Part shown: positions 23,313 to 64,000 of the stretch, piece by piece | How the letters are laid out: every line of letters starts with the position of its first letter | How positions within the stretch are numbered: position 1 is the first letter of the stretch | Assembly (NCBI GenBank): GCA_965198115.1 | Contig: OZ240241.1 | Location: forward strand, 8,160,001 to 8,224,000 | Source: Candidatus Latescibacterota bacterium | GTDB lineage: Bacteria; Latescibacterota; UBA2968 | Reading direction: 5' to 3' | DNA length: 64,000 nt | Notes under the pieces: model-generated | Database searches by the model: none | Told to the model about the DNA's origin: nothing | Seen by the model: the letters and a program-made list of their open reading frames with translations, nothing else | Position numbers and translations under genes: made by a program

Positions 23313-23315
23313 GAG

Positions 23316-23349: not shown

Positions 23350-23362
23350 CTTTTCACACGAG

Positions 23363-23388
23363 GACCCTCTGCCGGGTCCCTTTTTTTA
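23363..23388 (+). terminator. Intrinsic terminator-like hairpin between cysH and cysM
   Basis: GGACCC-TCTGCC-GGGTCC-C-TTTTTTT. Confidence 0.6.
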
Positions 23389-23406
23389 GCTCGAGAGCCT
23401 CGAACA

Positions 23407-24794: not shown

Positions 24795-24854
24795 CGGTTT
24801 GACGATTACGTCACCGCGCGCGGTCTCCCCCGCGGCGCGGCGAGGAATGGTTCA

Positions 24855-25811: not shown

Positions 25812-25831
25812 TCAATCCACTGGAGGGAACT

Positions 25832-26107: not shown

Positions 26108-26115
26108 AAGGTCAC

Positions 26116-26547: not shown

Positions 26548-26550
26548 GTC

Positions 26551-28089: not shown

Positions 28090-30372
28090 TTAGTCCGCCC
28101 GCCCGGCCGCTCTGGCCTCTCGCTCCATATTCTTTTCGCACGCCCGGATTCTGCCTTCGGCGAATTCCTCGAATTCCTGATCACCGTCCCACAGATCCAG
28201 GAACGTCTCGAACAGTGACTTGGCTTCTTTCCAGCGTCTGAAACCATATCGGAGCACGCCCAGGCTGAAGTAAGCTCGAGGGAAGCGCGGGTCGACTTCG
28301 ATCGCCTTCCGATAGGCCCGCTCGGCGCCGATCGGGTCACCCACGATTTCGAGGGCCCGACCTGTGCCCCAGTGAGTGAGCGCCTCTCTCGGACTCAGTT
28401 CGGTCGCCGTCCTGTAATGGTGAAGGGCTGTGATGTAGTCCTCTCGTCGCACCAGGAGCTCGGCCAGGTTGTGATGTGCCTGAGCGAGATCTGGATCTGT
28501 TTCCAGGGCACGACGGTAAAAGACCTCCGCCGAATCCACCTCCCCGCGTGCTTTGAGGATGTTCGCCAGGTTGTTGTTGGCTCCTGCATCCCGGTCGTCT
28601 ACCGACAGTATCTTTCGATACTCTGCTTCGGCTCGTCGAACGTTCCCCGTGGCCCTGTAGAGAGCTCCAAGGTTGGTGCGCACGGTCTTTGCGTCGGGGT
28701 AGATGGACAGAGCCGCTTCGTACTGTGCGAGAGCTTCGTCGTGGCGGCCCGTTCTTTTGTAGATGATCCCGAAACCGTTGTGCGCTCGCCACGCATAGGG
28801 GGCTTGCTCCAGGGCTCTCAGGTAAGCCGACTCCGACTCTGCGTGTCGGCCTTGCTGCTCGAGGCTTCGTCCCAGAACGATCAGCGCGTGGGGGCGAAAC
28901 AGACCCGACGAAACCGCCAACCTGGCTTCCCGTTCCACGTTCCCCCATTTTGCCCCGTCTTCCTCCGCCAATGCGGCAAGAAAGTGACGGTCGAACCTGA
29001 TCTGGCGGTGAGTCGTTGCCGCGGCCCCCATGGCGAGTAGGAGAAGGATTCCCACCACAATGCTCGCGGGACCCCGCGACAAGGTTATCGTTCCCCCGCG
29101 TGCAGCCGCCACAGCGCCCCCGATCGCGAAGATAAATGAGATTGCCTGGGGCTGTTCCCTGGGAAAGCTGAAGAAGCCGTGTGTCGCGAATCCCGCGACG
29201 GTGACTGCCAGAAACGGAGCGAGCGCAGACCAGGCTTCGTCGTCTCGCATTCTGTAGAGTTCGACGAGGAGGAGAAGGGGAATGGCCGCGTAGATCAGCC
29301 CGGCCAGGATTCCGCTCTCGGCGGTCACCCAGAGATAGTCGTTGTGAGGTCGTTTGGGAGACGAGTCCGGGCGGAGCATGACGCCGTCGTCGTAAGCGGG
29401 GTAGATATGCTGCCAGCTCCCCAGACCAACCCCCGTCAGCAGGTTGTCCCAGATCAGGTCGGCTGTCCTTGCCCACATGGCGAGACGACCCCGATCGCCC
29501 GTCTCCGCTGTCAACGACTGGAGCGTCGCGACGACGTCCGCTTTCTTCTCGTCGAACCGCTGGAGCCCCGTGTCTTCGAATCGTTCGTCCAACGGAGCGA
29601 GGGCGGCCGTGAGTAGAACCGCACCACACAGCACGATCCGTTTGGCAGTCGAGCCCAGCTGGCCGGGCAGGTTGCGACGGTAGAGTGATGACCGGACGAC
29701 CAGTGCGCATCCGACGACAGCACCCATCGTCAAGCCGAGCCAGGCGCCACGAGTGCGCGTGTAGACGAGAAACACGACCGACAGAGCTGTAGCGAGAGCG
29801 GGGAGGACAGCCAGCCACGTCGAAGGGGTGGCAAGCGCGAGATAGAGCGTGGCGGGGATTGCGCAGATGAGAAACATGGCGGCGAAGTTTCTGAATCCGA
29901 AGGTCGCGCTCGGCAGCCCGTTTGACGGAAGTGCGATCGGGGACAGACCCTGGTACTCCAACACGCCGATCGTGGATGTGAGCAGGGCCGCGAACGTGAC
30001 GCCCCAGATCGCGACCGTGAATCCGCGAGCCGAATCGAGCGACGTCGCCGCAAGCGTTCCGAGTGAGAACAGGACGATCAGAAAGGCGGCCTCTCCGAGT
30101 GCGTGGTCGGTGTTGGGAGCGTGGAGCGCCGAAGCGAGCGCCAGTCCCGTATACGCAGCCAAGAGACCGGATAGGGTGTTGCGTGGCAGTTCGAGCTGTC
30201 GCTCCGATTGGACCCGCCACAAGAGATGGGCCAGGCCGAGTGTAGTCAGTACGGCGAGCAGCCACCGCTTCGGCAGCAGGGCGTATTCGTAGATTCCGGG
30301 AAGAAGGGCAAGAGGCACGAGCGCAAAAACGAGGGCAATCCAAATGGCCCCGACGGTGCGTTGTGTGGTCAT
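28090..30372 (-). CDS. O-antigen ligase/O-OTase-like (Wzy_C) membrane protein with C-terminal TPRs, paralog 1
   Basis: About 12 hydrophobic segments; PSATFGFRNFAA, YTRTRGAW, GVGLGSW, RPHNDYL..AESG, FSFPRE; TPR tail. Confidence 0.85.
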   Translation of the reverse strand: MTTQRTVGAIWIALVFALVPLALLPGIYEYALLPKRWLLAVLTTLGLAHLLWRVQSERQLELPRNTLSGLLAAYTGLALASALHAPNTDHALGEAAFLIVLFSLGTLAATSLDSARGFTVAIWGVTFAALLTSTIGVLEYQGLSPIALPSNGLPSATFGFRNFAAMFLICAIPATLYLALATPSTWLAVLPALATALSVVFLVYTRTRGAWLGLTMGAVVGCALVVRSSLYRRNLPGQLGSTAKRIVLCGAVLLTAALAPLDERFEDTGLQRFDEKKADVVATLQSLTAETGDRGRLAMWARTADLIWDNLLTGVGLGSWQHIYPAYDDGVMLRPDSSPKRPHNDYLWVTAESGILAGLIYAAIPLLLLVELYRMRDDEAWSALAPFLAVTVAGFATHGFFSFPREQPQAISFIFAIGGAVAAARGGTITLSRGPASIVVGILLLLAMGAAATTHRQIRFDRHFLAALAEEDGAKWGNVEREARLAVSSGLFRPHALIVLGRSLEQQGRHAESESAYLRALEQAPYAWRAHNGFGIIYKRTGRHDEALAQYEAALSIYPDAKTVRTNLGALYRATGNVRRAEAEYRKILSVDDRDAGANNNLANILKARGEVDSAEVFYRRALETDPDLAQAHHNLAELLVRREDYITALHHYRTATELSPREALTHWGTGRALEIVGDPIGAERAYRKAIEVDPRFPRAYFSLGVLRYGFRRWKEAKSLFETFLDLWDGDQEFEEFAEGRIRACEKNMEREARAAGRAD

Positions 30373-32390
30373 GGCTTGGCTACGGGCAGGGATTCGAGTC
30401 GGTCTTTTGCCACGTCGGCGTAGGTGGATGGACCAGGTGCACGGGCGAGAAAATTTCGGAAAGCCTGTTCCGCTTTATGACGTGCTCGAGTGCGGAAGTA
30501 GAGCTCACCCAGGACGAAATACACGTCGCTTCGACCGGGATCGAGCACCTTCGCTTGCTCCAGGACTTCGATGGCTGCCGCATCTCGCCCAGCCAGCGAG
30601 ATCGCGTTTCCGAGTCGAAATAGCAGATCGGGCGTGTCTGACTCCAGACGCCTGACTGTTTCGTAGGCGGCGACGGCATCCTCGAAGCGCCTCATTTGGA
30701 GATAGAGGCCTCCCAGATTGTAGTATAGATCCGGAGCAGCGTCTACCAATCGAAGCGCGGAGAGAAAGTGGGATTCGGCCTCCTCGTGCCGTCCACCGTT
30801 CTGAAGGGCGATCGCGTAGCCGTTCAGAATCTGGACATCGTGAGGACGTCTCAAGACAACCCATTCGTAAAACGATGCTGCGTCTTCGAAGTGACCGGTG
30901 GTGTTGAGCGCGTATCCGTAGAGGTGCATCGCCTCGGGATGGAAGCGCCCCGAACGCAGGGCACTCGCGGTGTGGGCAGCGACCGCATTCCAGTTTCCGC
31001 GTAGCTCCTCGCGTATGGCGTGCGCGACGTTTCGTTCGAATTCAAGAAGACGGTAGGTCATCAAAGGCAAAGTGGCGGCCACGACGATAGCGGCGTGCAG
31101 CCAACGAGGTCTGCGAATGGCTCGAGCGGGCTCTGCGCCGAGTGCGAGCGTGATGGCGATGACCAGCCAGAAGTAGAACAAGGGCGTGACGCGCTCCAAA
31201 GGGAAGCTGAAGCAGCTGTGGACCAGAATCGCGACAAGACTCCATACACACGCCAGCGTCAGCCAGGGCGTCGCGTGTTGTCGTCTTGCGAGCGCCTTCC
31301 AGGCAGCCCGCAACGTCAGACCGAGGATCGACAACCACAGGATGAGTCCGGGAATCCCGAGCTCGGACAGGATCAGAAGCGCGAGGTTGTGCGGGCGCTC
31401 CGGGGCGTTGGTGAAGGTGATCGTCTCGCCCTCGTCGTAGGGTGGGTAGGCGATCGCCCAGTTCCCCGCCCCCACACCGGCAACGGGTCGATCCAGAATC
31501 ATTCCCAGGGTGTTTTGCCAGACGGTGATGCGGCCGCGGTCGCCTCCTTTGTCCAGGACGGAGGTCAGTGCGTCGGTGACGCGGCTCTTTTTTTCGTCGA
31601 TGCTTTGCGGTCCTGTCTTTCCGAGCCCCGAAGGGAGCGAGGCGATCGCCGCGGCGATCAGACACGCGTACACCAGGCTCGTCATCCGCGTCCACAGGTG
31701 GCCGAGGAGGTCGCGTCGCGTAATCAGCAGGAGCGTGAGGACGATGAAGAGCCCCACGAGGCTTCCGAGCCAGGCGCCCCGCGTACGCGTCAGGATGATG
31801 AACCCGGCGATCAGACCTGCGCCGACAGCGGCGTATCTGCTGGTCCGTCGTTCGGTGTCGGCGATCAGAAAGCAGGCGAACGGTAACGTCTGGATCGCGA
31901 CCATGGCGGCGATGTTGCGGAATCCGAGCGTGGCACTCGGGAGACCGGCAGATGGCGCATCCAACGGTCGGTAGCCGAGGTGCTGTAGGATGCCAAGGGC
32001 CGCGATACCCACGCCAGCTATGGTCAGCGCACGGGCGATGGTTGGAAGGGAAGAAACCGGGTATGCGTGGACGAGCAGGAGGAGACAGAAACCCGTCAGG
32101 AGCTTGGCGACGACGAGGACGGCTGGAACCGGATCTGTCGCCCAAATAGCGGATGCGGCACTGAGCGCGATGAAAGCGGCGATGACCGGGAGTTCAGTCC
32201 GCGCCGGGGGTCTTGCCCGTTTGATCGCGGTGCAGGCGAGGACCAAACCGGCAAGCGTTCCGACCTGGAGCAGCATCAGCTTTGGGGGGAGTGTGTAGTC
32301 CCGGTAGGCGGTCCCGTAGACCAGAGGAACCGCCAGGACCAGCGCGACGACGATCCGACGCGCCCACGTAGTGGAGGCCGCTTCATTCAT
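30369..32390 (-). CDS. Wzy_C + TPR protein, paralog 2
   Basis: PSATLGFRNIAA, TRTRGAW, GVGAGNW, RPHNL, FSFPLE; TPR tail; start at MNEAAST. Confidence 0.85.
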   Translation of the reverse strand: MNEAASTTWARRIVVALVLAVPLVYGTAYRDYTLPPKLMLLQVGTLAGLVLACTAIKRARPPARTELPVIAAFIALSAASAIWATDPVPAVLVVAKLLTGFCLLLLVHAYPVSSLPTIARALTIAGVGIAALGILQHLGYRPLDAPSAGLPSATLGFRNIAAMVAIQTLPFACFLIADTERRTSRYAAVGAGLIAGFIILTRTRGAWLGSLVGLFIVLTLLLITRRDLLGHLWTRMTSLVYACLIAAAIASLPSGLGKTGPQSIDEKKSRVTDALTSVLDKGGDRGRITVWQNTLGMILDRPVAGVGAGNWAIAYPPYDEGETITFTNAPERPHNLALLILSELGIPGLILWLSILGLTLRAAWKALARRQHATPWLTLACVWSLVAILVHSCFSFPLERVTPLFYFWLVIAITLALGAEPARAIRRPRWLHAAIVVAATLPLMTYRLLEFERNVAHAIREELRGNWNAVAAHTASALRSGRFHPEAMHLYGYALNTTGHFEDAASFYEWVVLRRPHDVQILNGYAIALQNGGRHEEAESHFLSALRLVDAAPDLYYNLGGLYLQMRRFEDAVAAYETVRRLESDTPDLLFRLGNAISLAGRDAAAIEVLEQAKVLDPGRSDVYFVLGELYFRTRARHKAEQAFRNFLARAPGPSTYADVAKDRLESLPVAKP

Positions 32391-34501
32391 GCTCGGTCTT
32401 CTCGATCTGCCCATCGAGTATCCGCGCCTGCTCGATGAACGTCGCGTCCCCCTTCCAGAGCTCGATGAACTTTCGGTATTCGCGGACGGCGCCCGAGCTG
32501 TCGCCCGCCGATAGAAGCAGGTCGGCAAGATTTCTGTGCGGGCGCGCATAGGCGGGGTCGAGAGCGATCGCTTCCAGGTAAGCGGAGCGTGCGTCCGGGG
32601 TTCGACCGATTTTTGCGAAGGCAGCGCCCGCGTTGTTGTGGTGTCTCGCGATCTCTGGTGCCAGGGCGATGGCTTTGCCGAAGGCGACGGCAGCAACCTC
32701 GGTCAGACCCGACATCAAGGCCGATTCACCAAGTCGATTCTGGAGGGAGGCGTCCTCGTCATCGTGTAGCAGCGCTTCACGATAGAACTTCACGGCGGCC
32801 TTCCACTCGCGATTCGATCGAGCGGAATCTCCGAGGGCCGTGGCGACTCTGATGATCCCATCCCGGGGCACCGAGTATGAAGGGTAGATGGATCGTTCCC
32901 GGAGATAGCCTTCGAGCGCGCCACGCAGATCCCCCTTTCTCTCCCTGACCTGGGCCAACGGCAGATGGCCTTCGTTCGGGTGGTAGCGGAGGGACTGCGT
33001 GAACGATTCGATCGCTTCGTCATACTGTCCAAGTCGCTCGTGGGCAAGACCGTTCAGTTGGAGCGCTCGAAAGTTGATCACGGTCGGGTCCAGGGCCGCC
33101 CGAGTGTCCCGCACGACTGAATGCCAGTCTTCACGGTTCCAGGCGTTGACTGCCCGGGCAAAGTGTCGATCGAAGTTCAAACACGTGAGAGTGATTCCCG
33201 CGCCGACCGCGATCAGGACGGCACCCGCGGAGAGGTGCCACCGCAACGAGCGTCCACGATCGGTCGGGTGGTCGGATTGCGACGATCAGACCGAGCGCCG
33301 TCCAGAACAACATCGATGCTGCGACGCGTTCCCTCGGAAAGCTGAAGAAGCTGTGGCCGAGGTAGGCGAGGGCACCCGCACAGAGAGCGAGTTCCCGGAC
33401 GTCGCAGGCCCGCCACAGACGGATACCGATGAGGCCGACGATCCACAGATAGAGTGCCAGACCTACGACACCTGTCTCGGCAAGGACCCAGGCGAAATCG
33501 TTGTGCGGTCTTTGTGGTGCCGTGTTTCGTGTAATCCATTCTCCCCGATCGTAGACCGGGTAATGCAGCATCCAGGCGCCCAGACCAACGCCCGATACCG
33601 GATGATCGGCCACCATGTCGAGCGTGCGACGCCAGACGGTGAGTCTTCCGCGAGCCCCAGACGGTGCGAAGACCTGGCCGAAAGTCGTCGACAGATCGGT
33701 TTTCCGCTCGTCGAACCCGAAGTCTCCCTCCAATGTCATCTGGTGCTGGAGCGGCCCTGCGACACAGACGATCAGGACGGCCAGTGCGCCTATCGCGATT
33801 TTCATTCGTCGGGAAGGAATCTCGAGCAGGCTGCTGGTCCGTATCGCGACGATTAAGGCACAGATCGTGGCCACTGCCAGACCCACCCAGGCACCCCGAG
33901 TGCGGGTGTAGAGCAACAACAGCAGCATCAGCGTGCCGGACAAAGCCAGGGTCGCAGCGCGGGCGGGCGATTCTTCCACGAGTCCGAAACCGATGACGAC
34001 GGGGATCGAGATCACCAGGTAGGTGGCGACGTAGTTTCGGTAGCCGAAGGTCGAACCGGGATTGCCCGCTGAGGGGACGACGAGGGGATCGACGCCGAAG
34101 TACTGACCGATACCGACGCTGGCCACGAGCAGCCCGGCTACGGCCCATACCCAGACGAGATCACGGGCAACACGCTCGCCGTCCAGACGCGATACATACG
34201 CATAAGTAAAGACCATGCACGTGAGCGAGGCCAGTTGGACGACGGCTTCGATCGCGTTCAACGCCCAAAACACCGAGAGAACGGACCACGACGTGAATGC
34301 GAGTACTGCGATGTCGAATCGGGCGCGACGTCTGATCGAGGGGGCGACGACGATCAGACCCGCCAGCCCGAGAACCACGCACACCTGAAGGACCAGAAGA
34401 CGGGGCCACCGGGTGAAGTCGTAAACGTCGCGTACGAATAGCAGAGGCACGACGAAGAGGGCGACTGCAGCTGGTAGAGCTGCGAGACGGAAACGGTTCA
34501 T
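32383..34501 (-). pseudogene. Wzy_C + TPR protein, paralog 3 (frameshift ~33240)
   Basis: PGSTFGYRNYVA, YTRTRGAW, RPHNDF, FSFPRE in ORF 33131-34504; last TM segment and TPRs in ORF 32383-33246. Confidence 0.8.
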
Positions 34502-36592
34502 CACGGCGTGATCGTCTCGAGCAGGTCGGTCAGTATCTTCACGCGCTCGCGAGCACGCAGGGCGGCATCGTCGTTGCGAGGCCAGCGCTGTAGAAAGGTC
34601 TCATAGGCCCAGAGCGCTCTTCGGGCGTGAGCGGGGTCTGCGTCGGCCTCGAGACTGTGGGCTTCACCGAGGTCATAGTAGAAGGAGGGGTCGGAGGGCT
34701 CCAGGGCGATGGCCTTCTCGATGGTGATGACCGCCTCGTCGATTCGTTTCGCTGCAATGTATGCCAGTCCGAGGTTACTCCAGGCGTCCACGAAGTCGTC
34801 CTTCAGTTCGATGGCCCGGCCGTAGGTGGCAATTGCCCCTTGCAGGTCTCCCCTCTGCTGCGCGATCCCTCCGAGGTTGTTCAGTATCTGGTAGTGCAAC
34901 GGAGCCAATGCGAGGGATCGACGGTAGGATGCTTCCGCGGCATCCATGTCGCCCTTGAGGGCGTAATTGGTGCCGAGATCGCCGAGCAGCTCCGCCTATG
35001 CGGATGGTAAGCGAGGCCAGTCCTGCCGGCATCGATGGCTCGACCGTACTGGCCGATCGCCCGGTAGCCTTTGGCTTGGAGAAGATGGGCGCGCGTGTCG
35101 AAAGGACCGATTTCGAGAGCCGCCGTAGCGGCTGCGAGCGTTGCACGAAGGTCGTTTCCGGCGTGGAAGGACAGGGCTCGCATCAGGTGACGGTCGAACC
35201 TCAGAGCCTGAATCGTGAAAGCAAGACATCCACACGCGAGGCCGGTGGCCAGAATCCAAGTCGTTTTGGAGCTTCGGATGCTTTGGGATTCGGAGGAGGG
35301 GGGGTGTAGCGTGACCAGAAGCGCCAGGTTCAACCAGAAGAGTAGTGACGTTTCGGCGAGCTCCTTCGGAAAACTAAATACGGCGTGGCCGAGACTCGCC
35401 ATCAGGCTCGCACCGATGGCGAGCCCCCAGGTGCGGGTCTGGGCGTTTCGGACAGCTCGCAGGAGGATCGATAGAGCGGCCGCCAGCATCCAAAAGTAGG
35501 TCGCCAGACCAATCAGACCCGTCTCCGCGGCAATCCAGAGGTAGTCGTTGTGGGGGCGTTCGGGCGCGGACCCCACTTTCAGCATGTCCCCCCCATCGTA
35601 GGGTGGGTAGGCGTATTGCCAGTTCCCAGGGCCGACACCCAACACTGGATAGTCGCCGATCATCGCGAGTGTGTGCGACCACATTGTCCGTCGCCCGCGG
35701 TCGGCACCCGGGCGGCTCGCCGAACTCAACGCGTCGAGCAGCGCCGTTTTTCCCTCGTCGAGGTGCCGCGATCGCGACGGTGACAGATTCGGATTCCACG
35801 GCCCCAGTGCGAGGACAAGCAGCGCCATTGCAACCGCCAGACGTTTTCCGAAGGAACTGGAGAGTGTGGGACTCCGGGTGGGGCGATAGATCAGACAGAG
35901 CATGCCGGTGGCAGCCCCGGCGACCATCAGAGCCGCCCAGGCACCCCGAGTCCGGGTGTAGACGAGGAACACCGACATCAAGGCAGTGGCCGCGGTGGCG
36001 ATGCCATACGTACGTCGCGATCGAGTCGTTGCAACCAGACCGATTGCGATCGGAATGCACACGACAAGGTAGGAGGCGGCCATGTTTCTGTAGCCGAATG
36101 TCGAACTGGGACGGCCGTTCGACGGAAACCCGCTCAGATCCAACCCCCAGAACTCGCCAATGCCGATGAGGGAGGCGAGTCCTCCGGCCCAGCAGAGGGC
36201 TTCTGCCAGTCGGGGAATGTGCGACCGGTCGAGGATCTGAACCGCGCAAAAGAACACGAGGACATAGGTCAACAGATGCGAAACCGACTCGATGGCGGCC
36301 ACCCGGTTGTGTGCTTGGGCAACGGCGATGGTCGTCGTCGCGAAGTAGACGATGACGGGCAGGCTCAAGATCGACCCGCGCAGAAGGGGTGATTCGATCT
36401 TGAACGCGTCCCGAGTGAGCAGGAGGAGAAGGATCAGCAATCCGATCTGGACCGCGAGCCGCTTCGGAAGAAGCGTGAAACGAGCAGATCTCCGTCGAAC
36501 ACGAATGTCGCGGCAATGAGCGTTGCCGCGATAATGCGGAATCCCCACGAATCGGTGACACGGATAGCGGCTTGTCTGTGGCGCTTCGCCAC
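34501..36592 (-). pseudogene. Wzy_C + TPR protein, paralog 4 (frameshifts ~36485 and ~34996)
   Basis: PSSTFGYRNMAA, YTRTRGAW, RPHNDYL, FSFPKE; TPR tail in ORF 34501-34947; GTG start abuts the stop of paralog 5. Confidence 0.78.
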
Positions 36593-38619
36593 TCAGTCGA
36601 CTCGCTTCCTGAGGTTTTGTAAATGGGCCCGAATCTGCTCGGCGTAATCGGGGTCGCCTTGCCACGCCCGAAGAACGATCTCGTACATATCGATGGCTTC
36701 GTTCAGACGACCGGACTGTTCGTAGGCCATGGCGAGGTTGTTACGGGCTTCGTTGAAATTGGGATTGAGTGTGATGGCTCGTTCAAGATGGCGAACCGCT
36801 GCCGCCGGGTTCTGCCGGTAGAGCTCGACCGCGCCGAGTGCGGCGTTGGCCTGAGGAGCGAAGAGGTCGTGGGACACGAGCGGGAGAAGCACCGCTCGCG
36901 CGGCATTGAAGCGGCCCGCTCTGATGAGTGTGTTTCCGTGATTGATCTGGATACCCCCATCCGTGGGTCGCAGACGGTGGGCGGTTTCGAAGTGTCGAAG
37001 GGCGCTGGTAAAGTCGTCCCGACGCGCGTAAACGCCCGCAAGATTGTGGTGTGTGTTTGCGTAGTTCGGGTGGTCGTCAAGGGCGCGCACGTAAGCGCTC
37101 TCGGCTTTCGCCCATTGACCGTTCTCGTGGAGGGCCTTCCCGAGGATGAATGTGATGCGATGGTCGATGGCTCCCAGTGGAATCGCCGTCTGGGATTCAG
37201 CGATGGCCAGAGACCAGTTTCCCGTCTGCGCCGCCCAGAGCGCTCGGGAAAAGGGACCGTCGAATCGCAGGTGACGCCACCCGGTTGCAAGAACAAGCAG
37301 ACAGACGACCACCGTAAGCGCTCCCAGTCCCCTCGGTAGACACGTCGATCGACTCGGTGTCTCCTTATGTGCGATGCCGATTCCGGCCAGTGATGTCCAG
37401 AAAAGGAGGAGCGTGGCGGGCTGCTCCTTCGGAAAGCTGAAGAGTCCGTGGACCGTGAATGCGGTCAGGCTGGCCGCACACGCCAGTCCGATGAGTGCAC
37501 GTTCGGGATCGATCGATCGCGAGACTTCCCACGCCTTTTTTCCCGCAGAGACGAGAAGCCAGAGGTAGAAGCACAGACCGACAAGCCCGATCTCGGCCGC
37601 AATCCACAACACGTCGTTGTGAGGTCTCGCCGGTTCCGAAGTCGGCGTGATGCGAGTGCCCCGGTCGTAAGGAGGATATGCGTATTCCCAGTTGTCGAGC
37701 CCGACACCCAGTATCGGATGGTCGCGGATCAGGTCCAGCGTATTTTCCCAAAAAGTCAGTCGCCCGCGAGCGCTGTCCTCGTCAAAAGCAGACTGAAGGG
37801 CGACGAGGGCGGTCGTCTTCTGTCGGTCGAATCGTTGGATGACGGCGTCAGAAGGGTTTTCCGAACGTGTTGCGACGAATGCGGCAAGGCCGACGAGGAT
37901 CGCCATCGCCAATCGACGAGGTTGCGTGAATGAACGCAGCCTGGCCGTCAGTTCATCCCGAAGAGGTCGGGCGCCAGCCACGACGACCACGACGATCGTG
38001 CACGCTGCGGCGAGCGCGATCCACGCGCCTCGTGTCCGCGTGAAGACGAGGAGGGTCCCCATCAAGAGCGTGCAAACGAGTGAGAGTGAAAACACTCCCT
38101 GCGATTCGGACCTGAGGATACCGAGTGTGGCCAGGGGTAAGGCCACGACGAGATACGATGCTGTGACGTTCCTGAAACCGAACGTGGCGCTGGGCAAGCC
38201 GACGGATGGAATCGACGTGAAGGCCAGGTCGAAATACTGAGCGATGCCCACGATCCCGACCAGGCCACCCCCGATCGCCAACGCCGAACACGCACTCACG
38301 AATCCTGCCGTGTCGACAGAGGACGTGACAATGGCGAAGAGGATCAAACCCGCAACGAGAGGTGCCATCTCGATCACGCTCGACAGCGGATTGTTAGCCC
38401 AAAAGGCGGACCCGACGCACACGAAGACGTAACCGAGTGCGGGCAGCAGCAGGCGAGTCGCGCGTATGACGGGCCGCGGCGCCCAGATCACCGCGAGCGC
38501 GCCGATTAGCACATAGAAGCCGGCGCGCTTGACGACCAGATCGGACCCTTCTTCAGGGCGGAACAGAAGAGGGATGATCAGGAGTCCCGCACCGAGGAGC
38601 CGGGTCTGGTATGGGCTAG

Positions 38620-47600: not shown

Positions 47601-48103
47601 ATGGGTCGTCGCCAACGAACTGAAGGTCACGGTCGGCGAGTTCATCCAGTGGGATATTAGCCCGAATGTCGCGCCCGCCGGAACCAAGGTCGAGATAGCG
47701 AACATCTACGTGACCGTCGATTCGAGTCACTACTCCCCGGTCGACCAAGACCCTGTGGCGCCCGGCATACAGCCCTTCAGTGTCGGGTCGAAGTCGATGC
47801 TGGATACCTCCCTGGTCACGCAGGGCGCGTATCTCGATCCGACGACGGCCTCGACCTGGCGCTTCGACTTCCGATACGACGACAACGGAGGTTCCGGCAT
47901 CACGTTTTTCGACGGAGCGCATCCATTGGCGATCCTCAACCTCCAGGCGCTGACTTTCACGGGCGCTTCGACGATCACGATCGACGACAGCGGGTCTCGA
48001 ACGAGCAATCTTCTGGATGACACGCTTACGGACCTGGATCCCTCTTCCGTATCGACGACGGTAAATATCTCGTGAGAGGATAGCTGCTTTGAGGTGATCG
48101 GAA

Positions 48104-54341: not shown

Positions 54342-57300
54342 ATGAAACAGAGGCTCTTGAGTTTAATAGGGATCGTGCTGGTCCTGTTCCTCGCACCGGG
54401 GAACGGTTCGGGCCAGACGATCACCCTGACACCCGATGCGATCCCGAACGGCATCGCGTCGTTGTCTGGGGAACAGTACCACCAGCGGATGGATATTCAG
54501 CTGGGTGGAACAGCTTCGGCTGTTATCAACGCTTTCACGATCACGCTTCCTGCCGAGGTCACCTACGTGGCGACCTCCGGCACGGCCGCACACAATGCTG
54601 CTGGCGCTGGGGTCAGGCTCCAGGCAGTTTTGGGTCAGAATCTCACCTTTGACATCTCTGGTGTTGCGGCGAGCCAGACCCACACGGTCGAGTTCGACGT
54701 GACGACGCCCGCCAGCTTTACCGGGATTCCGACGGGCACGAAGGTGGACACGTTCTACGTGGTCGACTTTAATGACGACGTCGGTTCGGCTCAGGATGTT
54801 GCCGTTGCGAAGCATCAGAATCTGCGTGTCGAGTCGGTGTCCTTCTCGGCTCCGGATTCGACTCAGGGCGACACCACGAGCGCGGGCGGGTGCTTTTACA
54901 AGCTGGCCTTCCCGAGTACGCTTCCTGACTACAGTCATACCTTCACCTCGGGACTGAGTGCCGCTGACCTAGCCGGTCTGGTCCCGATCTTCGCTGATGC
55001 GGCGACGGATATCCAATACACGTTCTATCTGTCGACGGATTCCAGTCTGATCGAACGTCCGCTCACGCTCGCTCCGGCCAGCCACTTCACGCTTTTGGCC
55101 GATCCGACGAGCGGTCCTCTCGCGGGCTCGCGGCAGAATCCTCGATTCATTCCCGCCACGTTCATTCGTGAGGACTTTACGACAGCCTTCGCCACGAACG
55201 CGTCTGATAGCGTCAATGGCGTGATCTCCCTCGCGGGTACGACGGACGACACGGTCTACTTCGTCTACGCGCTTGCAGACCCTGCCACCGGTCGCAATCC
55301 GACGCTCAATGTGGGTAGTGGTGGCGACGGTACCGGCGTAGGTAAAAAGGCTTTTGACCCGACGACGTTCGGCGCCTTTTCCGGCGGCGTGTTCCTCGGA
55401 CGTAGCGGACCGCTTCTCGTGCAGCATCCGCCCGAATTTGTGATCGCCGGGTGGGACTACGATGACGACACCAACGACGACTACGCCACGACCGGAGTCA
55501 TCCAGGTTCCGAGCGACATCAATGGGATGGGGGTGACAGCCGGCAACACGAAGGATAACCGCAACATCACGGTCGATTCGGGTCAATTCGAGCCGAAGGG
55601 AACGACCACGCTGACGACGCTTGCCGGCGGGCTCGTCCCCAAGTCGATCAACACATTCAGCATGCTGTTCGTGGCCGAAGACGCCGACAACCCGAATAAC
55701 TTCCAGATGAACATCATTCTGTCGACGAACAGCGGTCTGACGGTGAATGAACTGTCGGGTGGAGGCATCGATTCGTTCGACGTGGCGAGTTCGATTCGCG
55801 TGGCCGGTACGGACACGCTGACCACGAACCATCGAGTGTTCTCCTTCGATCCGATCGTTCGCGACTCTGCGACCAATCTGATCACCTCGTTCATCGCCGA
55901 AGCGACGTACAGCGTCTACTTCGTGGCGACGGACGGTACGAATCGGACGGTCTACCAGGTTTCGGACGATCCGTTCGCGGCGTCTCCGACGTTCTCGACG
56001 GTGACGGTGGCCCATTCTCCGAACATCGGGCAATTGGACTCCTATTCCGTCAACGACTTCGGCGGGGACGGCGATCTCGACGTGAACACAGGGATCGATC
56101 TTTCTCAGATGTTCTCGACCGCCGCTTTCGCCGGTGGCGACGACGATGGTAAGAATCTGAGTGGCGGCCCCTCCCAGCGGTTCGTGAACATCCACTGGGG
56201 TGGCGGCGGTTTGGACAACGACATCGACGTCGACGACGACGCGACGGTCGAATTCTACTACAGCACCCGTGCGGACTTCAACGGAGCAGGTAAGAGCTTC
56301 GAATTCACGAGTGGCAACTCCGATGGTTCGGATCTGCTTGCTGCCATCGTACAGGGCAACAACGACACGCACCTGATCGGAAGCGTCAGTGAAAATCCCG
56401 ATGGCAAGTTCGACGACAACTTCCAGTGGGATCTCTGGACATACGTCTCTCCGGAAAACACTATTCCGCGCACCGGCGTCAAGTATTTCCTGTATTCGAT
56501 TATGACCGGTGGCACGACCCGTCGTCTCGTTTCGTTCACGGAAGACGGTTCCACCGTTGCTCCAGGCACGACGCCCGTGGGCGTCAACTTCGAGCATTCG
56601 CCCTACGCTCGCGTTATCGAGCCATCCCAGGACATTACCGTGTCCGTCGATGAGCCGGTGAACGTGATCTGGGAGGCGGTCGATGTGGATAACGCCGCAG
56701 CAAGCGGTTTGAGCGCGGTACCTGCTGGGACGAGTGGACGTTCGTCTCCGAACAGCCGGGCCGACTCGCCGAACTTGCGGATCATCTTGACGTCCACCGA
56801 CTTCGGTGAGGTGACCAACTGGGCTACGCTCAACGCTGCGACGGCCCCGGTCTACTTCCTCGGTAACTCCAGCGCCGGTGGTTTCTCTGGTGAGATCGAG
56901 CTCAACGAAGGTGTCGATACCGCTTTCGTCATCCAGGGCAACCGGATGCGGAACGGTGTTCTCGCCAACGCCACGGTGGGTACCGATATGGGCACGAACA
57001 ACGGTCTGGGTACGACCTACTTCGTCTACCTAGCCGTAGATTCGGGTCTGGACGGAACCTCCGCAGCACAGGGTCAGTTCTTTAGCGGTCGTTCGCCGGC
57101 CGTTCGGGCACCTGGCCGTGTGACGTTCACCGGTGTGGTTCCGACTTCTGCTTCGACAAGTGCCAAGTTCGTGATTCCGACGCGTATGACGGCCGTTTCG
57201 GAAGAGCTGATTCGGTACCCGATCGTCCCCGACGAGGGTGACGGCACTGGTGGAACGACTATCGAAGTCGTGAACATCTTCCTCACGGTCGATGCCAGCC

Positions 57301-59646
57301 TCTTCGACGCCGTTGATCAGGATGCGAGTACTGCGGGTATCCAGCCCTTTACGTTGGGCACCAACGGTGCGCTGAGCGCGGCCGATGTCGATCAGGCAGC
57401 CTACATCGACATCAACACGGGTGATCTGCGTCTCGATTTCATCTACGACGTGGGTCTGGCCGGAACCGGTCTGAGCTTCTTCGATGGCGAGCAGGTCCTG
57501 GCAAGCGCCAACCTGCGTGCCAAGTCGATCTCGGGCGGGCCACGACGGCGACGACGATCTCGCTGGACAACAGCGGGACACGCGTCTCCAAGATGATCGA
57601 CGGCAACTTCACCCTCGGTGTGGCCATTCCGGCACCCACGAACGTCAACATCGTAAATCGTGCCGAGGTAACGGGTACGGTCCCGCTCCAGGGTCGAACG
57701 ACCTCGGCGGATACGGTGACGTTCATCCTCCGTGATGTGGGCGACTTCATCCCGGTGACCGATGCGGTGTTCACAGCCGCGAACGACACCCTGCCCAACG
57801 TGCCTGGAATTCAGGTGATCACGTCGGGTGTGAACGGCGACTTCACGCTGACAGCCGTGCCGACGGGCCGTTTCGTCCTGACGGCGCAGGTCCCGCGCCA
57901 CCTGGCGGGTCAAGACACCGTGAATGTCGAGGGTGGTCTGGATGTCTCGGGCGTGCAGCCGACGCTCGACGGAGACGGTGTGGATCGATCGGCGCTGCTC
58001 GCCGGTGACGCTGCCGGATTCAATGACAGCTCAGGTGCTTCGGTGCCGAACAACGTCATCGACGCGGCTGACATCAGCGCCATCGATGCGGCTCTGTTCG
58101 CACAGGTCGGTGACGCAGACTACGATACCTTCGCGGACATCAACCGTGACAACATCGTGAACGGCTCGGACCGAGCCTTCGCGACGGCTAACGTCACGGC
58201 CAACACGGGTGTGGGCGGCGTCAAGCCGGTCTTCCCGACGTTCAAGCAGGTCGTGGTCGACGGCGACAACTCCGAAGCGCGTCTCGTCATCAGTGGCTAT
58301 CCCACTGAGGAAGTGAGCGCTGGTGAGGTGTTCGACGTCACCGTAGCCATCGAAGGTGCTGCTTCTGTCCGCACCTACGAGTTCCACCTCGGCTTCGATC
58401 CCAGCAAGCTGGCGGTCGAGGACGTGGTGCCGGGTTCGCTGTTCGAGAACTACACCGCCGACATGGGCGGCAGGGTTCGCGAAGGTGACTTCGGTATCGT
58501 GAACTCGATTCTGGGCCTGACACCGGTGGGCGCTTCGGGTGAAGCTACCCTGGCCACCGTCCGGTTCCGGGCCATCAGCCGGTCGTCCGAGACCATGCTC
58601 GAGCTGACGGACGCGCTCCTGATCGACGTCGATCACGAGGGTGCCAAGCCCGAACTGGCCGGTGAAGCGATGATCGTCCTGTCCAACGATCCGATCGTCT
58701 ACCACGACGCAGCGGGTCAGACGGTACACGGACTGATCCTCGCCGACGCCGACCCGAAGGTCGACTTCAACGACTTCGTCGCGTTTGCCCAGTCCTTCGG
58801 GACCTCCGCCGGTATGGAGGCCTACGATATGCGGGCAGACTTCAACGGAGACGACACAGTGAACTTCGCCGACTTTGTGATGCTGTCGCAGAGCTTCGGC
58901 AAGGTCGCGGTGGACGCTCCTTCGGCACGTCGCGCCGGTAAGTCTGTGGCACCAGCCGGCGTGAATACCAATGCAACGATGACACTTCAGGTGGATGGGG
59001 AAGCTCGAATGGGCGAACTGCTGACGCTGAACGCTCAAGTCGGGCAAACGCAGGCTCTGATGGGTTGGGGACTGACGGTGCAGTACGATCCCACGATGTA
59101 CGAGTTCGTGGAAGCGAGTGCGCCCGAAGGCAACCTGCTCGAATCAGCCGGCGCGAGTGCTCCGCTCTTCCCACAGCGCCACACCGGGTGAGGTGACCCT
59201 CGCCAGCGCCGTAGGCGGCGAGGGTAACCTGGCTCAGCTGGTGTTCCGTCCAATCGGCGAGTTCGAGGACGCCACGTTCGACATCGCGAACGGTATCGTC
59301 TTCGATTCCAGCCAGTTGACGAACCCGGCGGGTGCCGCTGAGGCCCTGAATGTGCGGGCAATCCCGACCGCCTTCGCACTCAACCAGAACTTCCCGAACC
59401 CCTTCAACCCCCCAGACGACGATTTCCTACGATTTGGCCGAGGGGGGGCAGGTCCACCTCGAGATCTACAACGTGATGGGCCAGCTCGTGAGTTCGTTGG
59501 TTTCGGAGAATCAGCCCGCCGGCCGCTACCAGGTCGTGTGGAACGGTAACGATGCGGTTGGCCGACAGGTCGCCAGCGGCATCTACTTCTACCGTCTGAA
59601 CACGTCCGGCTTCAAGGCGGTCCGGAAACTGATGCTCCTGAAGTAG
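54342..59646 (+). CDS. Large secreted cohesin/dockerin/FlgD-Ig-CTD surface protein B (~1770 aa), paralog of A, with three single-base frameshifts (~57541, ~59171, ~59411)
   Basis: AGGAAGGAG RBS; signal peptide MKQRLLSLIGIVLVLFLAPG; shares RQNPRFIPATFIREDF, HPPEFVIAGWDY and GEIELNEGVD with A; dockerin-like ADFNGDDTVNFADF; CTD FALNQNFPNP...RKLMLLK. Confidence 0.82.
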
Positions 59647-59685
59647 GAATAAGTTTCCGGAAAGGCAGTTCCTTTCCTTGGATGA

Positions 59686-59727
59686 GGATGGGCGGATCGG
59701 CGCTTACCAGCGCTGATCCGCCTGTCC
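59686..59727 (+). other. Strong stem-loop after gene B, without a U-tract
   Basis: GGCGGATCGGCGCT-TACC-AGCGCTGATCCGCC, extendable with G-U pairs. Confidence 0.7.
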
Positions 59728-59912
59728 GATATCCGGGCTTCGTGTCCGATCTCACCCCTCGGGCCTGTATCTGGGCCACTTCCTGATCCACCCCCAGGTT
59801 GGTAGTTTTTCAGCGTGACCGTGGTTTTCCCGACGTCCCATCGTTCTAGCCGTGGCACGTGTCTTGCAATTCCCGCAGTGGGCATCTCCGCATTCCACCT
59901 GGGCAAGGTTAC

Positions 59913-62900
59913 ATGACAACACTTCGCATTCCCATCCTGCTCCTGCTGCTCGGTCTCCTTTCGGGCCCCGTCGGCGCGGCCAAGAATGGTCAGTCCGAAC
60001 TGGAGCTCCGTCAGCCGAATACGACGAACAACAACATCTCGGCACAGGTCGGTGAGACCGTTCAGGTCGAGGTTTTCATCCGAGGACGTGGCGAGCAGAT
60101 TACGGGTGTTCAGCTGTTCTTCAGCTTCGACGACACGTTCCTCGAGCTCGTCCCGGTCGGTCCAGTCGGCCAATGGGCCGCGGCCCTTTACACCCGGTGG
60201 ATACATCAACGGCACGGTCTTCCGGAACGACTCCATGGATGACCAGATCGGGAACAGCAACGCAAACAAGCTCCCGTTCTACCAGATGCTCTACCAGGAG
60301 CAGGTCAGCGGCTTCGGGGGGGACCCAGGTTGCCCGGATCGGTGACGGGACGATCGCCCGGTTTTCTGTGCGCATCATTCGGAAACCGGCGAGTGGCAAC
60401 GCCAACATACGAATCGACCCGTCATCCCCGATTGGTTCCCAGACAGGCTTCTTCATTGTTTCTGATCCGGGGACGACCTATACGTTCAGGAACCTCACGG
60501 GCCTGACACTCAATGTCCAGGGTGTCGATCTGTCGGTCCGTCTGCCAGACCTGTTTCTCCTTCCCGGCACGATCGACAATTCTCTCGACCTGGACGATTT
60601 CATCGACGATCCCGTCAGCCCCGATTCGACGATCGTTTGGACCAACAGCGCACCCGATCCGGCCGGCATCGCGGTTTTGATCGATCCCACGACCCACGTG
60701 GTTACCGCAAACGCCCAGAGCTTCATTGGCATTACGGAGGTCGTCGTCACGTTAGCTACGACGCTCCAGGATACACTGTTCGACACGATCAACGTGATCG
60801 TGGACACACCTCCTACGTTCGACGAGTCGGCCTTCCCGGACACGATACGTTTTCTGGAGGATGGCACCGACTCTAGCCTTGTGCTTCAGGCTTCGGATCT
60901 GGACGATCCGGCTGGTGGAACGCTTGTCTTTGATTCACCGGACACAGCCACCAGTACCTTCGCCTCGATCGCCACGGGATCGGGTTTGAGTCGTCGTGTG
61001 ACGTTTACCGCGACACCGAACTTTTCGGGACAGGAACTGAGAACATTTACAGTAAGAGACGAATTCGGTCTGGCGGATACCACGCAAGTGCTGGTCATCG
61101 TGGACGGTGAGAACGATCCACCCGAGTTTTTCGAGCCGTTTCCGACCGTGACAGTAGGAGCCCTGGGTCAGGCCGTGTTAACGATGACCGACTTTGTTCG
61201 CGACGTGGACGACCCGTTCAACGCCTTGAGTTTCTCCTTTTCTGGCTCCGACAGTGTGGCCTTCGATGTGAGCTCCGCGAACACTCGGATGACGATCACG
61301 CCCGTGCCTCCTTTCATGGGTACCCGGACCGTGATCGTCGTCGTCCAGGACACCTCCTAGGCGACGGATACCCAAAACATCACCGTTCAGGTTCAGCCGC
61401 CCGACGATCCACAAGCCCCTCAGGTGCTCGTGCCGTTCCTAAAGATGGATGTCATCGCCGGATCGAGCCGCACCGATGCCGACCTCGACACGCTCGTGAC
61501 GGACATCGACACGCCGCTGAATCAGCTGAGCTGGCGCACTTCGCCACTCGTGCTGTCGAACGCGGACGCGAATCAGCTGAGTGCCAGCAGGGTTCTATCG
61601 CTCGGATCGACGGCCAGTGCAATCGGGTTCGAGCGGGCCACGCTCACCGTATCGGATCCCCTGAGTCTTTCCGATACGCTGTCCGTGAGAATCTATTCTG
61701 CATCTCCGGTTACGGGCATCCCCGTCGCGGGAGGCATGCCCGATCTGGTGATCCCGGCAGGCGAGGTCGATTCTTTAGATCTCGATTTCTTCTCTTTCGA
61801 TGCGACCGATGCGCAGGATCAGCTCGCGTGGTCGGCAACCGGCCAGGTGGGCGTGACTGTTCAGATTGACCCAGTCACCCACATCGCCCGCTTCGTGGCG
61901 CCGACAGCGATCACGGATCCGACGGAAGACATCGTTCTGGAAGTGCGGGATCCCGATGGAAACACCGCGACCGATACGATCACGGTAACGACCGTTCCAC
62001 TCGGCGGTGTCCTCGTCGACGCGGACGTTCTCGGTGGAACCAGGACGATCATCGTGGGGCGGCCCGACACGCTGGCCCTGACCCCCGCGCTCATCGTCGG
62101 CGACTCGTCTAATATTCTCTGGAGCGTGGAATCGGATGAGCCTTCGGTCGTTCTTGCCCAGGTCATCGGACGAACGTCGTTGCAGCTGATCGGCCTCGTC
62201 GAGGGAGACGTCGACGTAGCGATCACGGCGACGGACACCGCGAGCGAAAACAGCACGGGAGCAACCCTGAAAGTTCGTTCGCGGCGGACGATCGCCGAAG
62301 ACATTCAAGTGAGGGACATCGGTCCTCTGGTGTTGACGGCGAACCGGGACACGACGATCGACCTGGCGGCGCTGATCATCTCTGGCAACTCGCAGAACAT
62401 CGTATTCACCACACCCGGACACGCGAATATCGCCGTTGAAATCGACACGACCAACCAGGAGGCGATCATCCGACCCGTCTCCGGATTTATCGGAGACGCG
62501 GGCTCCCTCGTTTTTCAGGCCGAAGACCTCGTCACGGGTGCGACGGGACTGAGTCTGGCCACACCTGTGACGGTGCAGGGGTCGCCCAGCGAAGGGCGCG
62601 ATCTGATCGAGGTCCGGCTGCTGGTGAACCCTATTCGCAACAATTTCCTCGACGCGTATGTCATTTCGCGCCGGGATCTTCTCGCCGAGCCAACGCTGGC
62701 CATTTTGAGAGAAGGTGAGACGGCACGGCGGAATCTGAGTGTGAATCCGGTCGCGGAACTGGAAGGGACGTGGGTGGGTGACGTCGTCATCGGGGATGCC
62801 GTGACGGGGACCGTTCGGGTTTTCGTTACGGGCATCACGGCCGAAACACGAATCGCACTTACGGACACGGTCCGCATCGACATCGCCGAAGGCGGTATTT

Positions 62901-63808
62901 CGGATCAGTTCACGGTCTCGAACGAAAACGTGCTGGTCCAGATGCCATCCGGAAGTCTGAGCGATCGGGCGCACATCGCGCTTTTCGAGGGATCAGACGG
63001 CCCCGGAGTCTCCAGGGCGAAGTCAGCCGTCGGCGAGATCGTTCAGATGTCGCCCGTCTATCGTATCCACGGAACGCGTGGTCACGTGACCGAGCCGGGT
63101 CTCATCCGGTTCCTCCAGCCTGTCGAGGGCGGTGTCGGAGTTTACCGTCAGGAGATCACCGGCTGGGTTTACGTCAGCGACTACGCTGCCGAAGGCACCC
63201 CCGTGGGTTGGGTGGACGCGTTCGGGAGCTATGCGCTGTTCGCCGATCGCGTGGGACCGCAGATTCCATATCCGACGGCTTCCGAGGATGGGACCTCGCT
63301 CGTGTTCGATGCGACAGAGGCAGGCAGCGGGATCGACCCGGACCGCCTCGAGTTGACGGTCGGCGGTCAGGCCGTGACCGCATCCTATCGTCCCGGTGTC
63401 GGGATCGTCTGGTCTCCGAGAGGGACCTACGACGACGTGGCATCGGTCGAACTGGTCGTCGAGGATTTTGCGGGCAACGCGACCGTTTGGGAGGGAGACG
63501 TAGACCTCGGAACGCTGATCAGCCGTCCGCGGGAGCTCGCCCTTCATCAGAACTTCCCGAATCCGTTCAACCCACAAACGATCATCGAATTTGAACTGCC
63601 ATCCGACGGACACGTCCGAATCGACGTATACAACCTGCTCGGACAGCAAGTGCGCGGACTCGTTGCGGGTCCACAGGGAGCCGGTCGTCACACCGTCTCG
63701 TGGGATGCGCGTGACGATCAGGGCAGACTGGTCGCCGCTGGTGTTTACCTCTACCGCCTGACTGCGGACAGCCGTGTTCTCATCCGCAAGATGTTGCTGC
63801 TGAAATGA
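59913..63808 (+). CDS. Large secreted protein C (~1300 aa): N-terminal cohesin-like domain, cadherin/Ig-like repeats, FlgD-Ig CTD; frameshifts ~60170 and ~60320, in-frame TAG 61358-61360
   Basis: Signal peptide; VGETVQVEV..GVQLFFSFDDTFLE; repeats LDLDDFIDD, TPNFSG..FTVRD, NDPP, FVRDVDD; CTD LHQNFPNPFNP...RKMLLLK. Confidence 0.78.
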
Positions 63809-63818
63809 CCATAGGCCG

Positions 63819-64000
63819 ATGACCATGAGACATCTGACAGCGACCGCAATCCTTCTACTGTGCCTGGTGACCGCCGGATGCGGTGGGGGAACCGGAACGG
63901 GCGGCACGTTCGGATCCTCGGAGACGCTGACGTTCGAGGGCTGGGAGGCCTACCGCGGGGCGATCGAGGCCACGGATTACGATGCGGCAGAGAAGCTGTT
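63819..64000 (+). CDS. Putative lipoprotein, possibly TPR-like (partial)
   Basis: MTMRHLTATAILLLCLVTAG/CGGG lipobox, 10 nt after the stop of gene C; open to the window edge. Confidence 0.7.
   Translation, partial: MTMRHLTATAILLLCLVTAGCGGGTGTGGTFGSSETLTFEGWEAYRGAIEATDYDAAEKL

Follow-up and report, generated by a model that had tools for sequence, protein, structure and literature searches.

Within the window, by which we mean the whole 64,000-nucleotide stretch of DNA analyzed, seven genes between positions 28090 and 44633 lie on the minus strand, and each encodes a Wzy_C domain above the Pfam cut-off followed by TPRs, as a sequence-only reading of this DNA had recognized. Ligase slot 1 (28090-30372) is intact and encodes 760 aa, with 13 predicted membrane helices followed by the TPR tail, and slot 2 (30369-32390) is also intact. 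Slot 3 (32383-34504) carries a frame change near 33257, and slot 4 (34501-36590, start approximate) carries one near 34995. The open frame of slot 5 (36593-38615) is intact, and the expected site of its first codons is occupied by an insertion element (38616-40177, plus strand; DUF772 + DDE) that we take to belong to the IS1182 family and that has 28 similar stretches genome-wide. Slot 6 (40174-42084) is intact. Slot 7 (42085-44633, end approximate) has the longest TPR tail, with frame changes near 42906 and near the 3' end. The full module exceeds the window: in window numbering, ligase 8 lies at 69239-71338 and the frameshifted ligase 9 at 74223-76504, and the nine ligases are accompanied by a barrel-like protein (D), a further lipoprotein (E), and a phosphoglycosyltransferase of the priming kind.

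The array stands head-to-head with gene A (44953-51508; this and the following window features are on the plus strand), across a gap of about 315 bases that had previously been put at ~310 bp. Upstream of A is a sigma-54-type -24/-12 promoter motif (44760-44775) that is kept in relatives. Gene A encodes a signal peptide, all-beta domains without annotation over ~1040 aa, pairs of dockerin-like and cohesin modules, and a type A tail for type IX secretion (T9SS); it is split by an IS256 (Mutator family) element (48104-49477) with 151 similar stretches genome-wide. An ISAzo13-family element (51743-53029; 80 similar stretches genome-wide) separates A from its paralog B (54342-59646), which also has a T9SS tail and has frame changes near 57536, 59171 and 59405. 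Another sigma-54-type motif kept in relatives (59853-59868) precedes gene C (59913-63808), a D-S/T-rich protein of Ig-like repeats that ends in a T9SS tail; its frame changes near 60166 and again near 60319, and it is interrupted by a stop at 61358-61360. The lipoprotein reported beside these genes does start at 63819; it is a 224-aa TPR protein whose gene runs from the window (63819-64000) to 64493. It is followed by D (64490-65881), and E lies at 71448-72260. The lengths of 1300-1770 aa claimed for the large proteins fit the intact orthologs in genome G001 (1716, 1775 and 1318 aa), whereas A, B and C are broken in the window.

The description of these proteins as cohesin and dockerin carriers applies in part: A and B have cohesin matches above the cut-off and dockerin matches at or below it, whereas C has neither. 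In G001 the N-terminal parts of A and B are 46% identical; this region has no Pfam or NCBIfam match and Atlas scores below 0.8, and its structure model (pLDDT 57) matches only generic Ig/Fn3 chains. All three proteins end in a FlgD_ig/Por_Secre_tail domain. The T9SS type A tail model TIGR04183 is exceeded by B and C and is borderline for A; together with the signal peptides, and with SprA and eight PorV-family genes above cut-off in the genome, this marks A, B and C as T9SS type A cargo. Protein D resembles a beta-barrel with a CsgG/TolB_N-like tail. It has no family above cut-off, no PDB sequence match and no PorP match, and it sits in its own unnamed Atlas cluster.

Wzy_C (PF04932) scores above cut-off in 21/21 ligase membrane domains. 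Structure prediction had been proposed as a check on the fold, and the slot-1 model (pLDDT 95.5) finds its best match for residues 1-427 in WaaL (7TPG; Z 23.0, 356 aligned, rmsd 4.5). The WaaL-like part is extended by a 13th helix and by the TPR, which lies on the face that bears the catalytic loop. Both arginines and the histidine of the catalytic Arg-Arg-His (numbering from PMC3643930) are present in 67/67 aligned ligases. When PglL-type positions are mapped by spacing onto the same 67 ligases, N180 (66/67), G316 and G318 (67/67 each), and P406 (60/67) are largely kept, H400 is found in 38/67, Q178 in 1/67, and E404 in 0/67. No PglL_A domain is matched across the 21 membrane domains, and Wzy_C_2 stays below its cut-off (21-22 bits vs 28.5), in just 2/7 window ligases. 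Below their cut-offs, NCBIfam models matched the 21 ligases as IctB (21/21), exosortase O-ligase (10), RfaL (10), TfpM (5) and Wzy_EPS (1).

The nine ligases form nine position-specific orthologous clades (SH-aLRT 94-100), with one ligase per slot per genome kept over two families and paralogs 25-33% identical. Loops and TPR lengths are conserved by slot, the tails spanning 190-410 residues. The proposal that each TPR tail selects a substrate gained no support: slot specificity is no greater in the TPRs than in the membrane domain, and in the sister family f3 the 11 sampled ligases form a single clade inside slot 1 (SH-aLRT 99). That family has rebuilt an array from one slot.

Linkage across genomes had been suggested as a check. 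The array adjoins the same cargo genes in six other genomes (G001, G010, G012, G030, G062 and G063), so this neighborhood is not due to chance. Within the order, the array is present in 14/53 genomes. D and an ortholog of the priming transferase occur in all 14 of these, A/B in 13/14, and C in 12/14 by search, with a further C fragment in G063; each is found in 0/39 array-less genomes. Because these 39 genomes belong to four genera, few events underlie the co-loss, which was counted by genome. Five array-less genomes carry a lone outgroup Wzy_C+TPR protein, and four of the five are the sole array-less genomes with a transferase paralog. Other T9SS cargo is retained in 53/53 genomes, the array-less ones holding 7-24 T9SS tails each.

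The linkage has exceptions, which count against a pairing of ligases and substrates as first envisaged. In G009 (98% complete, 200 contigs) eight ligases are intact and full-length and no A/B was found, and in another order the cargo cluster occurs without an adjoining ligase. G039 has A, C, the lipoprotein and D without a ligase. In family f4, A/B-like proteins are present in 28/69 genomes, and a ligase stood beside the cargo in 0/6 loci read, three of which reach a contig end. G059, which might have passed for an array without cargo, instead indicates a deletion, its A signal peptide running into mid-D at the junction.

The reported lack of a glycosyltransferase, flippase or Wzz gene is right for the window, where none was called, but glycan genes lie beyond it. 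The priming transferase (72823-74226; TIGR03025 above cut-off) starts 8.8 kb after the window ends, and at ~22 kb comes a cluster of glycosyltransferases that includes asparagine-synthase-like and carbamoyltransferase genes; a Wzx-type flippase is linked in G001. No Wzz/Wzc or Wza was recognized at the locus. LpxC was found in 0/125 sampled genomes of the class, against 28/28 other genomes of the phylum, which removes the usual LPS acceptor. KdsA was found in 1/125 class genomes; KdsA, LpxB, LpxK and WaaA were not found in G000, and BamA is present. That LpxC is missing class-wide is remarkable in its own right, and our search of mainly open-access literature found no published account of it.

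We propose that the nine Wzy_C+TPR proteins are predicted protein O-oligosaccharyltransferases (O-OTases) that transfer a lipid-linked glycan to A, B, C and E, forming a glycoprotein coat in a cell without a detectable lipid A pathway; we put the probability of this reading at roughly one half. A dedicated glycan-transfer module linked to surface proteins, the part of the earlier proposal that stands apart from substrate choice by TPR, is supported by the synteny over two families, the co-loss in the order, the intact catalytic residues, the conserved slot loops and TPR lengths, and the lack of a lipid A acceptor. The linked phosphoglycosyltransferase would prime a polyprenyl-pyrophosphate glycan that the downstream cluster could extend and flip, as the gene families suggest. 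Each ligase might then act at the periplasmic face through its WaaL/PglL-type Arg-Arg-His center, while the TPR tail, predicted to share this face, would keep the periplasmic cargo in place. With SprA and PorV encoded in the genome, the cargo could exit through its C-terminal signal and assemble as a calcium-bound layer via its cohesin-dockerin-like and Asp-rich modules. The nine slots probably serve different acceptor sites or donors, given that loops and tail length are particular to each of them. A more tentative scenario, which we consider rather doubtful as a whole, is that a class of diderm FCB bacteria lost lipid A and that, in part of it, a T9SS-secreted cohesin-dockerin coat supplies the surface glycan through nine TPR-guided OTases with distinct sites or donors, the battery having been built twice at the same locus.

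A candidate acceptor motif, D-[S/T]-[AILVMT], which is of the D-(S/T)-x type of Bacteroidota O-glycosylation, is frequent in C (92 vs 41.5 expected) and E (30 vs 8.5 expected), and it is conserved better than control dipeptides. It is unenriched in A (1.23x) and B (0.91x), shows no overall enrichment over the secreted proteins of G000 (1.01x), and in matched cargo the array-bearing and array-less genomes overlap.

Other explanations were weighed. Since the best solved match is WaaL, the ligases could join glycans to a glycolipid that replaces LPS, with a PorU-like sortase anchoring the cargo as with Porphyromonas A-LPS. A PorU-like protein does occur in G000 (207 bits, below the 420 cut-off), and the asparagine-synthase-like and carbamoyltransferase genes of the linked cluster would also fit. 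Yet a lipid acceptor leaves the long TPR tails and nine conserved slots unexplained, the T9SS tails kept by array-less genomes imply that general cargo anchoring needs no array, and no LptD match was found in G000 with a model that also misses the Bacteroides controls. We therefore regard this explanation as unlikely. Ordinary O-antigen ligation to LPS, to which both the Pfam label and the fold would point, is close to refuted by the missing lipid A genes.

It is also conceivable that the array proteins are polymerases of the Wzy type, or ligases acting in sequence, and assemble several lipid-linked blocks into a complex surface polysaccharide; the TPRs would then scaffold a multi-enzyme complex, and export of the product would fall to the lipoprotein and D. 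The linked priming transferase and flippase, the barrel-like D with its CsgG/TolB_N-like tail, and the survival of the G009 ligases without A/B agree with such a role. However, ligase and OTase models prevail among the sub-cut-off matches, no co-polymerase (Wzz/Wzc) or Wza was recognized at the locus, and in G039, which lacks a ligase beside the cargo, the lipoprotein and D still accompany it; we judge this role improbable. We give still more guarded credence to O-OTases with broad, overlapping periplasmic targets, whose copies would serve throughput or redundancy and whose closeness to A/B would reflect shared regulation more than pairing. The f3 array suggests that many copies can matter without nine slots, and D-S/T motifs occur in the ligases' own TPR tails. 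Against this, the slots, whose paralogs are so divergent, have persisted over two families with a single ligase of each per genome, and the secreted proteins of G000 lack an overall motif enrichment.

To our knowledge, known O-OTase systems comprise one or two enzymes. The earlier suggestion of a layout without known precedent goes too far: Paenibacillus alvei CCM 2051 has WsfB, which is described as a Wzy_C+TPR protein and, like WsaA and WsaB of Geobacillus stearothermophilus, as a predicted S-layer O-OTase (PMC2943079). As there, Wzy_C with a C-terminal TPR is linked here to a priming transferase and glycan genes, with a surface-layer protein as the (here predicted) target. The likeness is one of domain layout; WsfB is one enzyme in a monoderm, whereas here nine conserved paralogs meet T9SS-tailed cargo in a diderm. 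PglL, PglS, TfpO and TfpM share the Arg-Arg-His center, their dedicated members are reported to adjoin their substrates (PMC3643930, PMC12645811, PMC12800693), and PglS, with 13 helices and a periplasmic C-terminal domain (PMC12800693), resembles the present ligases in both features. They differ in that PglL_A and Wzy_C_2 fall below cut-off here, E404 is absent and Q178 nearly so, a TPR forms the tail, and the predicted targets are proteins other than pilins.

The genes of the S-layer proteins TfsA and TfsB of Tannerella forsythia stand in tandem. According to a 2022 paper, TfsA and TfsB carry 11 and 19 O-glycan sites and the OTase responsible is unknown; these proteins, like the cargo here, are large surface T9SS substrates with D-S/T-x motifs, and like A and B they form a paralog pair (PMC8729774). 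Tannerella has LPS, and the comparison involves no sequence or fold link. SprA, PorV-family and PorU-like genes are shared with the systems that anchor cargo by PorU and A-LPS or by PorP/PorE, and the operon of cargo, TPR lipoprotein and barrel-like protein echoes PorE-PorP-cargo (PMC8729774, PMC9143113); here, by contrast, there is no detectable lipid A pathway, the tails are type A, and D has no PorP match. The PEP-CTERM/exosortase A system, described with a TIGR03097 O-ligase, PrsT and TIGR03013, likewise combines sorted surface proteins, an O-ligase, a TPR protein, a priming transferase and RpoN control (PMC9850573). In contrast, the sorting signal here is the T9SS tail, the TIGR03097 match is sub-threshold, and the ligases number nine. 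We found no published description of the locus in the literature on Latescibacterota, ligase+TPR proteins and S-layer/T9SS, a search that covered mainly open-access papers.

If the more tentative scenario of lipid A loss and a nine-OTase coat is true, it would amount to a multi-OTase envelope system of a new sort and could point to the class of enzymes behind D-S/T-x sequons. The locus bears on which enzyme serves this sequon in FCB bacteria and on the way in which an LPS-free cell retains and decorates its T9SS cargo. Nine orthologous slots over two families imply a specificity code readable from nine natural variants, with potential use in glycoconjugate engineering.

G001, G030 and G062 carry intact copies of the locus, with which the idea could be tested in a heterologous host. 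The window copy is broken in A, B and C, in the frameshifted ligases 3, 4 and 7, and by the insertion at the ligase 6/5 junction, and the module is decaying in this genome. An assembly error seems not to underlie the frameshifts, as contigs from runs X1 and X2, which come from one sample and possibly the source of the assembly, match the window and are gap-free there. Breaks occur at 0.85 per 1000 aa in the locus vs 0.93 in 59 other genes, so the decay is genome-wide rather than specific to the locus.

We propose, with a probability of about 0.5, that the Wzy_C+TPR ligases of this locus are a battery of protein O-OTases that act in the periplasm on the T9SS cargo and on the lipoprotein E. A linked priming phosphoglycosyltransferase (hereafter transferase) and a glycan cluster would supply the donor, and the ligases would glycosylate cargo and E as acceptors; we infer a role for the TPRs and a cargo lattice as further parts of the scheme. 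The observed genes, residues, linkage and missing lipid A pathway underlie this proposal.

The seven ligase genes of the sequence-only reading are confirmed: they occupy 28090-44633 on the minus strand, each with a Wzy_C match over the cut-off followed by TPRs. The reported head-to-head gap of ~310 bp also holds, since ligase genes and the large secreted cargo gene A diverge ~315 bases apart. The locus extends past the window through a TPR lipoprotein, the barrel-like protein D (463 aa), ligase 8, E, the transferase (TIGR03025 over cut-off) and ligase 9. GT2/GT4, carbamoyltransferase, methyltransferase and asparagine-synthase-like genes make up the glycan cluster, which starts some 22 kb beyond the window. 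In the relative G001 this cluster additionally carries PMT-like genes and a Wzx-type flippase; a search of the host genome (G000) found no ortholog of the flippase. A sulfur-assimilation cluster (window 22557-27477; by eye PAPS-reductase-like, two cysteine synthases, ThiS/Mov34-like and Rrf2-like) flanks the array, in a position shared by families f1, f2 and f3.

The G000 copy is damaged. In the window, IS256 interrupts A, frameshifts affect B, C and ligases 3, 4 and 7, C also contains a stop, and the ligase 6/5 junction is occupied by an IS1182-type element. Contigs of sequencing runs X1 and X2 (one sample, possibly the assembly source) are letter-identical to the window. The locus breaks at the rate of 59 other genes, among which housekeeping genes are mostly intact, and we read the breaks as real, genome-wide decay. 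G000 (single contig, 8.43 Mb, 59% GC) is IS-rich, with 151, 80 and 28 stretches similar to the three elements of the locus. At 48072-48103, ~31 extra bases separate the end of A's first part from the IS256 left end.

The cargo had been described as cohesin+dockerin giants; A and B do have cohesin and weak dockerin matches, whereas C has Ig-like matches only. TIGR04183 T9SS tails end B and C over cut-off, A being borderline. In G000, SprA and eight PorV-family genes pass their cut-offs, tails are matched 19 times, and a PorU-like protein scores below its cut-off. The latter (1932 aa, 207 bits; G000:C1:4364833-4370631) adjoins a polysaccharide cluster that includes a Wzy_C gene devoid of TPRs. 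Sigma-54 -24/-12 motifs lie upstream of A (44760) and C (59853) among 31 matches in the entire genome, and also occur in G001, G030, G010, G012, G009, G062, G063 and G039. The first 1040 residues of A/B form an unnamed family (131 representatives in 1.84 billion; 51/153 phylum genomes), predicted with low confidence to be all-beta and with generic structural matches only; the Atlas cluster holding D is most common in Latescibacterota. A third A/B paralog lacking a T9SS tail lies away from the locus (L032, L033, L038); its halves in G000 (C1:5912468-5915079 and 7662182-7663723) are 1.7 Mb apart, beside ISAzo13 copies.

Linkage of ligases and cargo, on which the sequence-only reading depended, is borne out in part. 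Gene order is complete in G001 and G030, complete except for A in G062, and seen in contig pieces in G010, G012, G063, G002 and G009. Among 53 genomes of the order, each at least 80% complete and each scored for ten candidates, 14 carry at least five array-type ligases. D occurs in 14/14 of these and 0/39 others, A/B in 13/14 and 0/39, and C in 12/14 by search, plus a fragment in G063, and 0/39. A transferase ortholog (at least 61% identity) is present in each of these 14 and confined to them; four of the remaining genomes have 42-47% paralogs only. Other T9SS tails are retained in 53/53. The array-less genomes represent four genera, and within one genus G020 and G030 differ. In G059 the signal peptide of A continues directly into mid-D sequence, apparently through deletion of the cargo operon, and several ligases are split, which fits decay following cargo loss.

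Against this linkage stand cargo genes lacking a neighbouring ligase. The LpxC-positive G039 has A-C-lipoprotein-D in this state, and in family f4, where the cargo cluster is enlarged to 5-7 genes, no ligase adjoins it in six loci read (three run to the contig end); 25/69 f4 genomes have a distant ligase match only, mostly in one copy. The cargo operon thus predates its link with the ligases. The f4 tandem clusters (L044-L054, L060-L063; G104, G119, G144, G089, G097, G111) comprise large, D-S/T-rich A/B/C-like genes and include a tail-less divergent member. These clusters and G039 count against O-OTases dedicated to T9SS cargo, as does G009, where eight full-length ligases accompany the promoter, the transferase, C, D and E, while A/B and slot 6 were not found.

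Candidate acceptor motifs suggest only C and E as targets. Relative to shuffles, D-[S/T]-[AILVMT] is most enriched in E (3.5x), then in C (2.2x) and f4 cargo (1.8x), and A and B give 1.2x and 0.9x, orthologs not being independent. D-[S/T] columns are conserved at 11/59 in C (controls 3/47 and 0/33) and 6/13 in E (control 0/7). The motif stands at 1.01x in bulk secreted versus 0.81x in cytoplasmic proteins, under crude sorting, and matched cargo values overlap between array-bearing and array-less genomes.

The slot-1 model (pLDDT 95.5) best matches WaaL 7TPG (Z 23.0, residues 1-427), also the sole PDB sequence match. LpxC is found in 0/125 class genomes vs 28/28 other phylum genomes (KdsA, 1/125 vs 19/28), and LpxB, LpxK and WaaA gave no matches in G000. 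This makes canonical WaaL activity very unlikely, and we regard LPS ligation as a far-fetched role. With BamA, SprA and PorV kept in G000, the class is probably a large LPS-free diderm lineage; the literature searched held no description of lipid A loss in it. The ligases might instead join glycan to a substitute glycolipid that anchors the cargo, which we consider unlikely. Two LptF/LptG-like genes (by eye) adjoin sprA at G000:C1:3403275-3412094, although searches of G000 recovered neither LptD nor lipid A genes.

Two Arg and a His are kept in 67/67 aligned ligases, and PglL-type residues (numbering from PMC3643930) partly so. Neither PglL_A (21 membrane domains) nor Wzy_C_2 (the seven window ligases) reaches cut-off, but these domains are also missing from TfpO and TfpM (PMC12645811). 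That the ligases are polymerases seems unlikely. Quick trees of their membrane domains, with 66 and 67 rows after exclusion of proteins shorter than 430 or 600 aa, resolve nine clades that each correspond to one position and have a single member per genome (SH-aLRT 94-100), and TPR tail length (~190 to 410 residues) is characteristic of the slot. Members of a slot share 69% and 60% identity in the two periplasmic loops, against 49% and 44% between slots; the corresponding pairs are 42/26% for the first TPRs and 36/24% for the first helices. The nine slots are old and maintained, with the TPR not singled out as the slot-specific part. Broad, redundant OTases are a decidedly improbable reading. 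In the slot-1 model a 13th helix follows the WaaL-like part; by helix count, the TPR would lie on the same face as the catalytic loop. Eleven sampled f3 ligases, mostly at the same position after cysK, form one clade within slot 1, reflecting either another round of expansion or homogenisation of the array (L064-L066 in G059, L069 in G061, L070 in G060).

The claim that no such system had been described needs narrowing. WsfB, a predicted S-layer O-OTase (PMC2943079), shares the Wzy_C+TPR architecture; the surface-layer proteins TfsA/TfsB bear heavy O-glycosylation from an OTase that PMC8729774 gives as unknown; and PorE-PorP-cargo anchoring (PMC9143113) and RpoN-dependent PEP-CTERM genes (PMC9850573) are looser parallels. 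The parts are of known kinds, while the locus itself, with nine conserved slots, a T9SS cargo link and an LPS-free setting, is undescribed in the literature searched. Elsewhere, G000:C1:4383138-4387934 carries microcompartment-like genes (shell-protein-like and aldehyde-dehydrogenase-like, by eye) and an inserted membrane protein gene.
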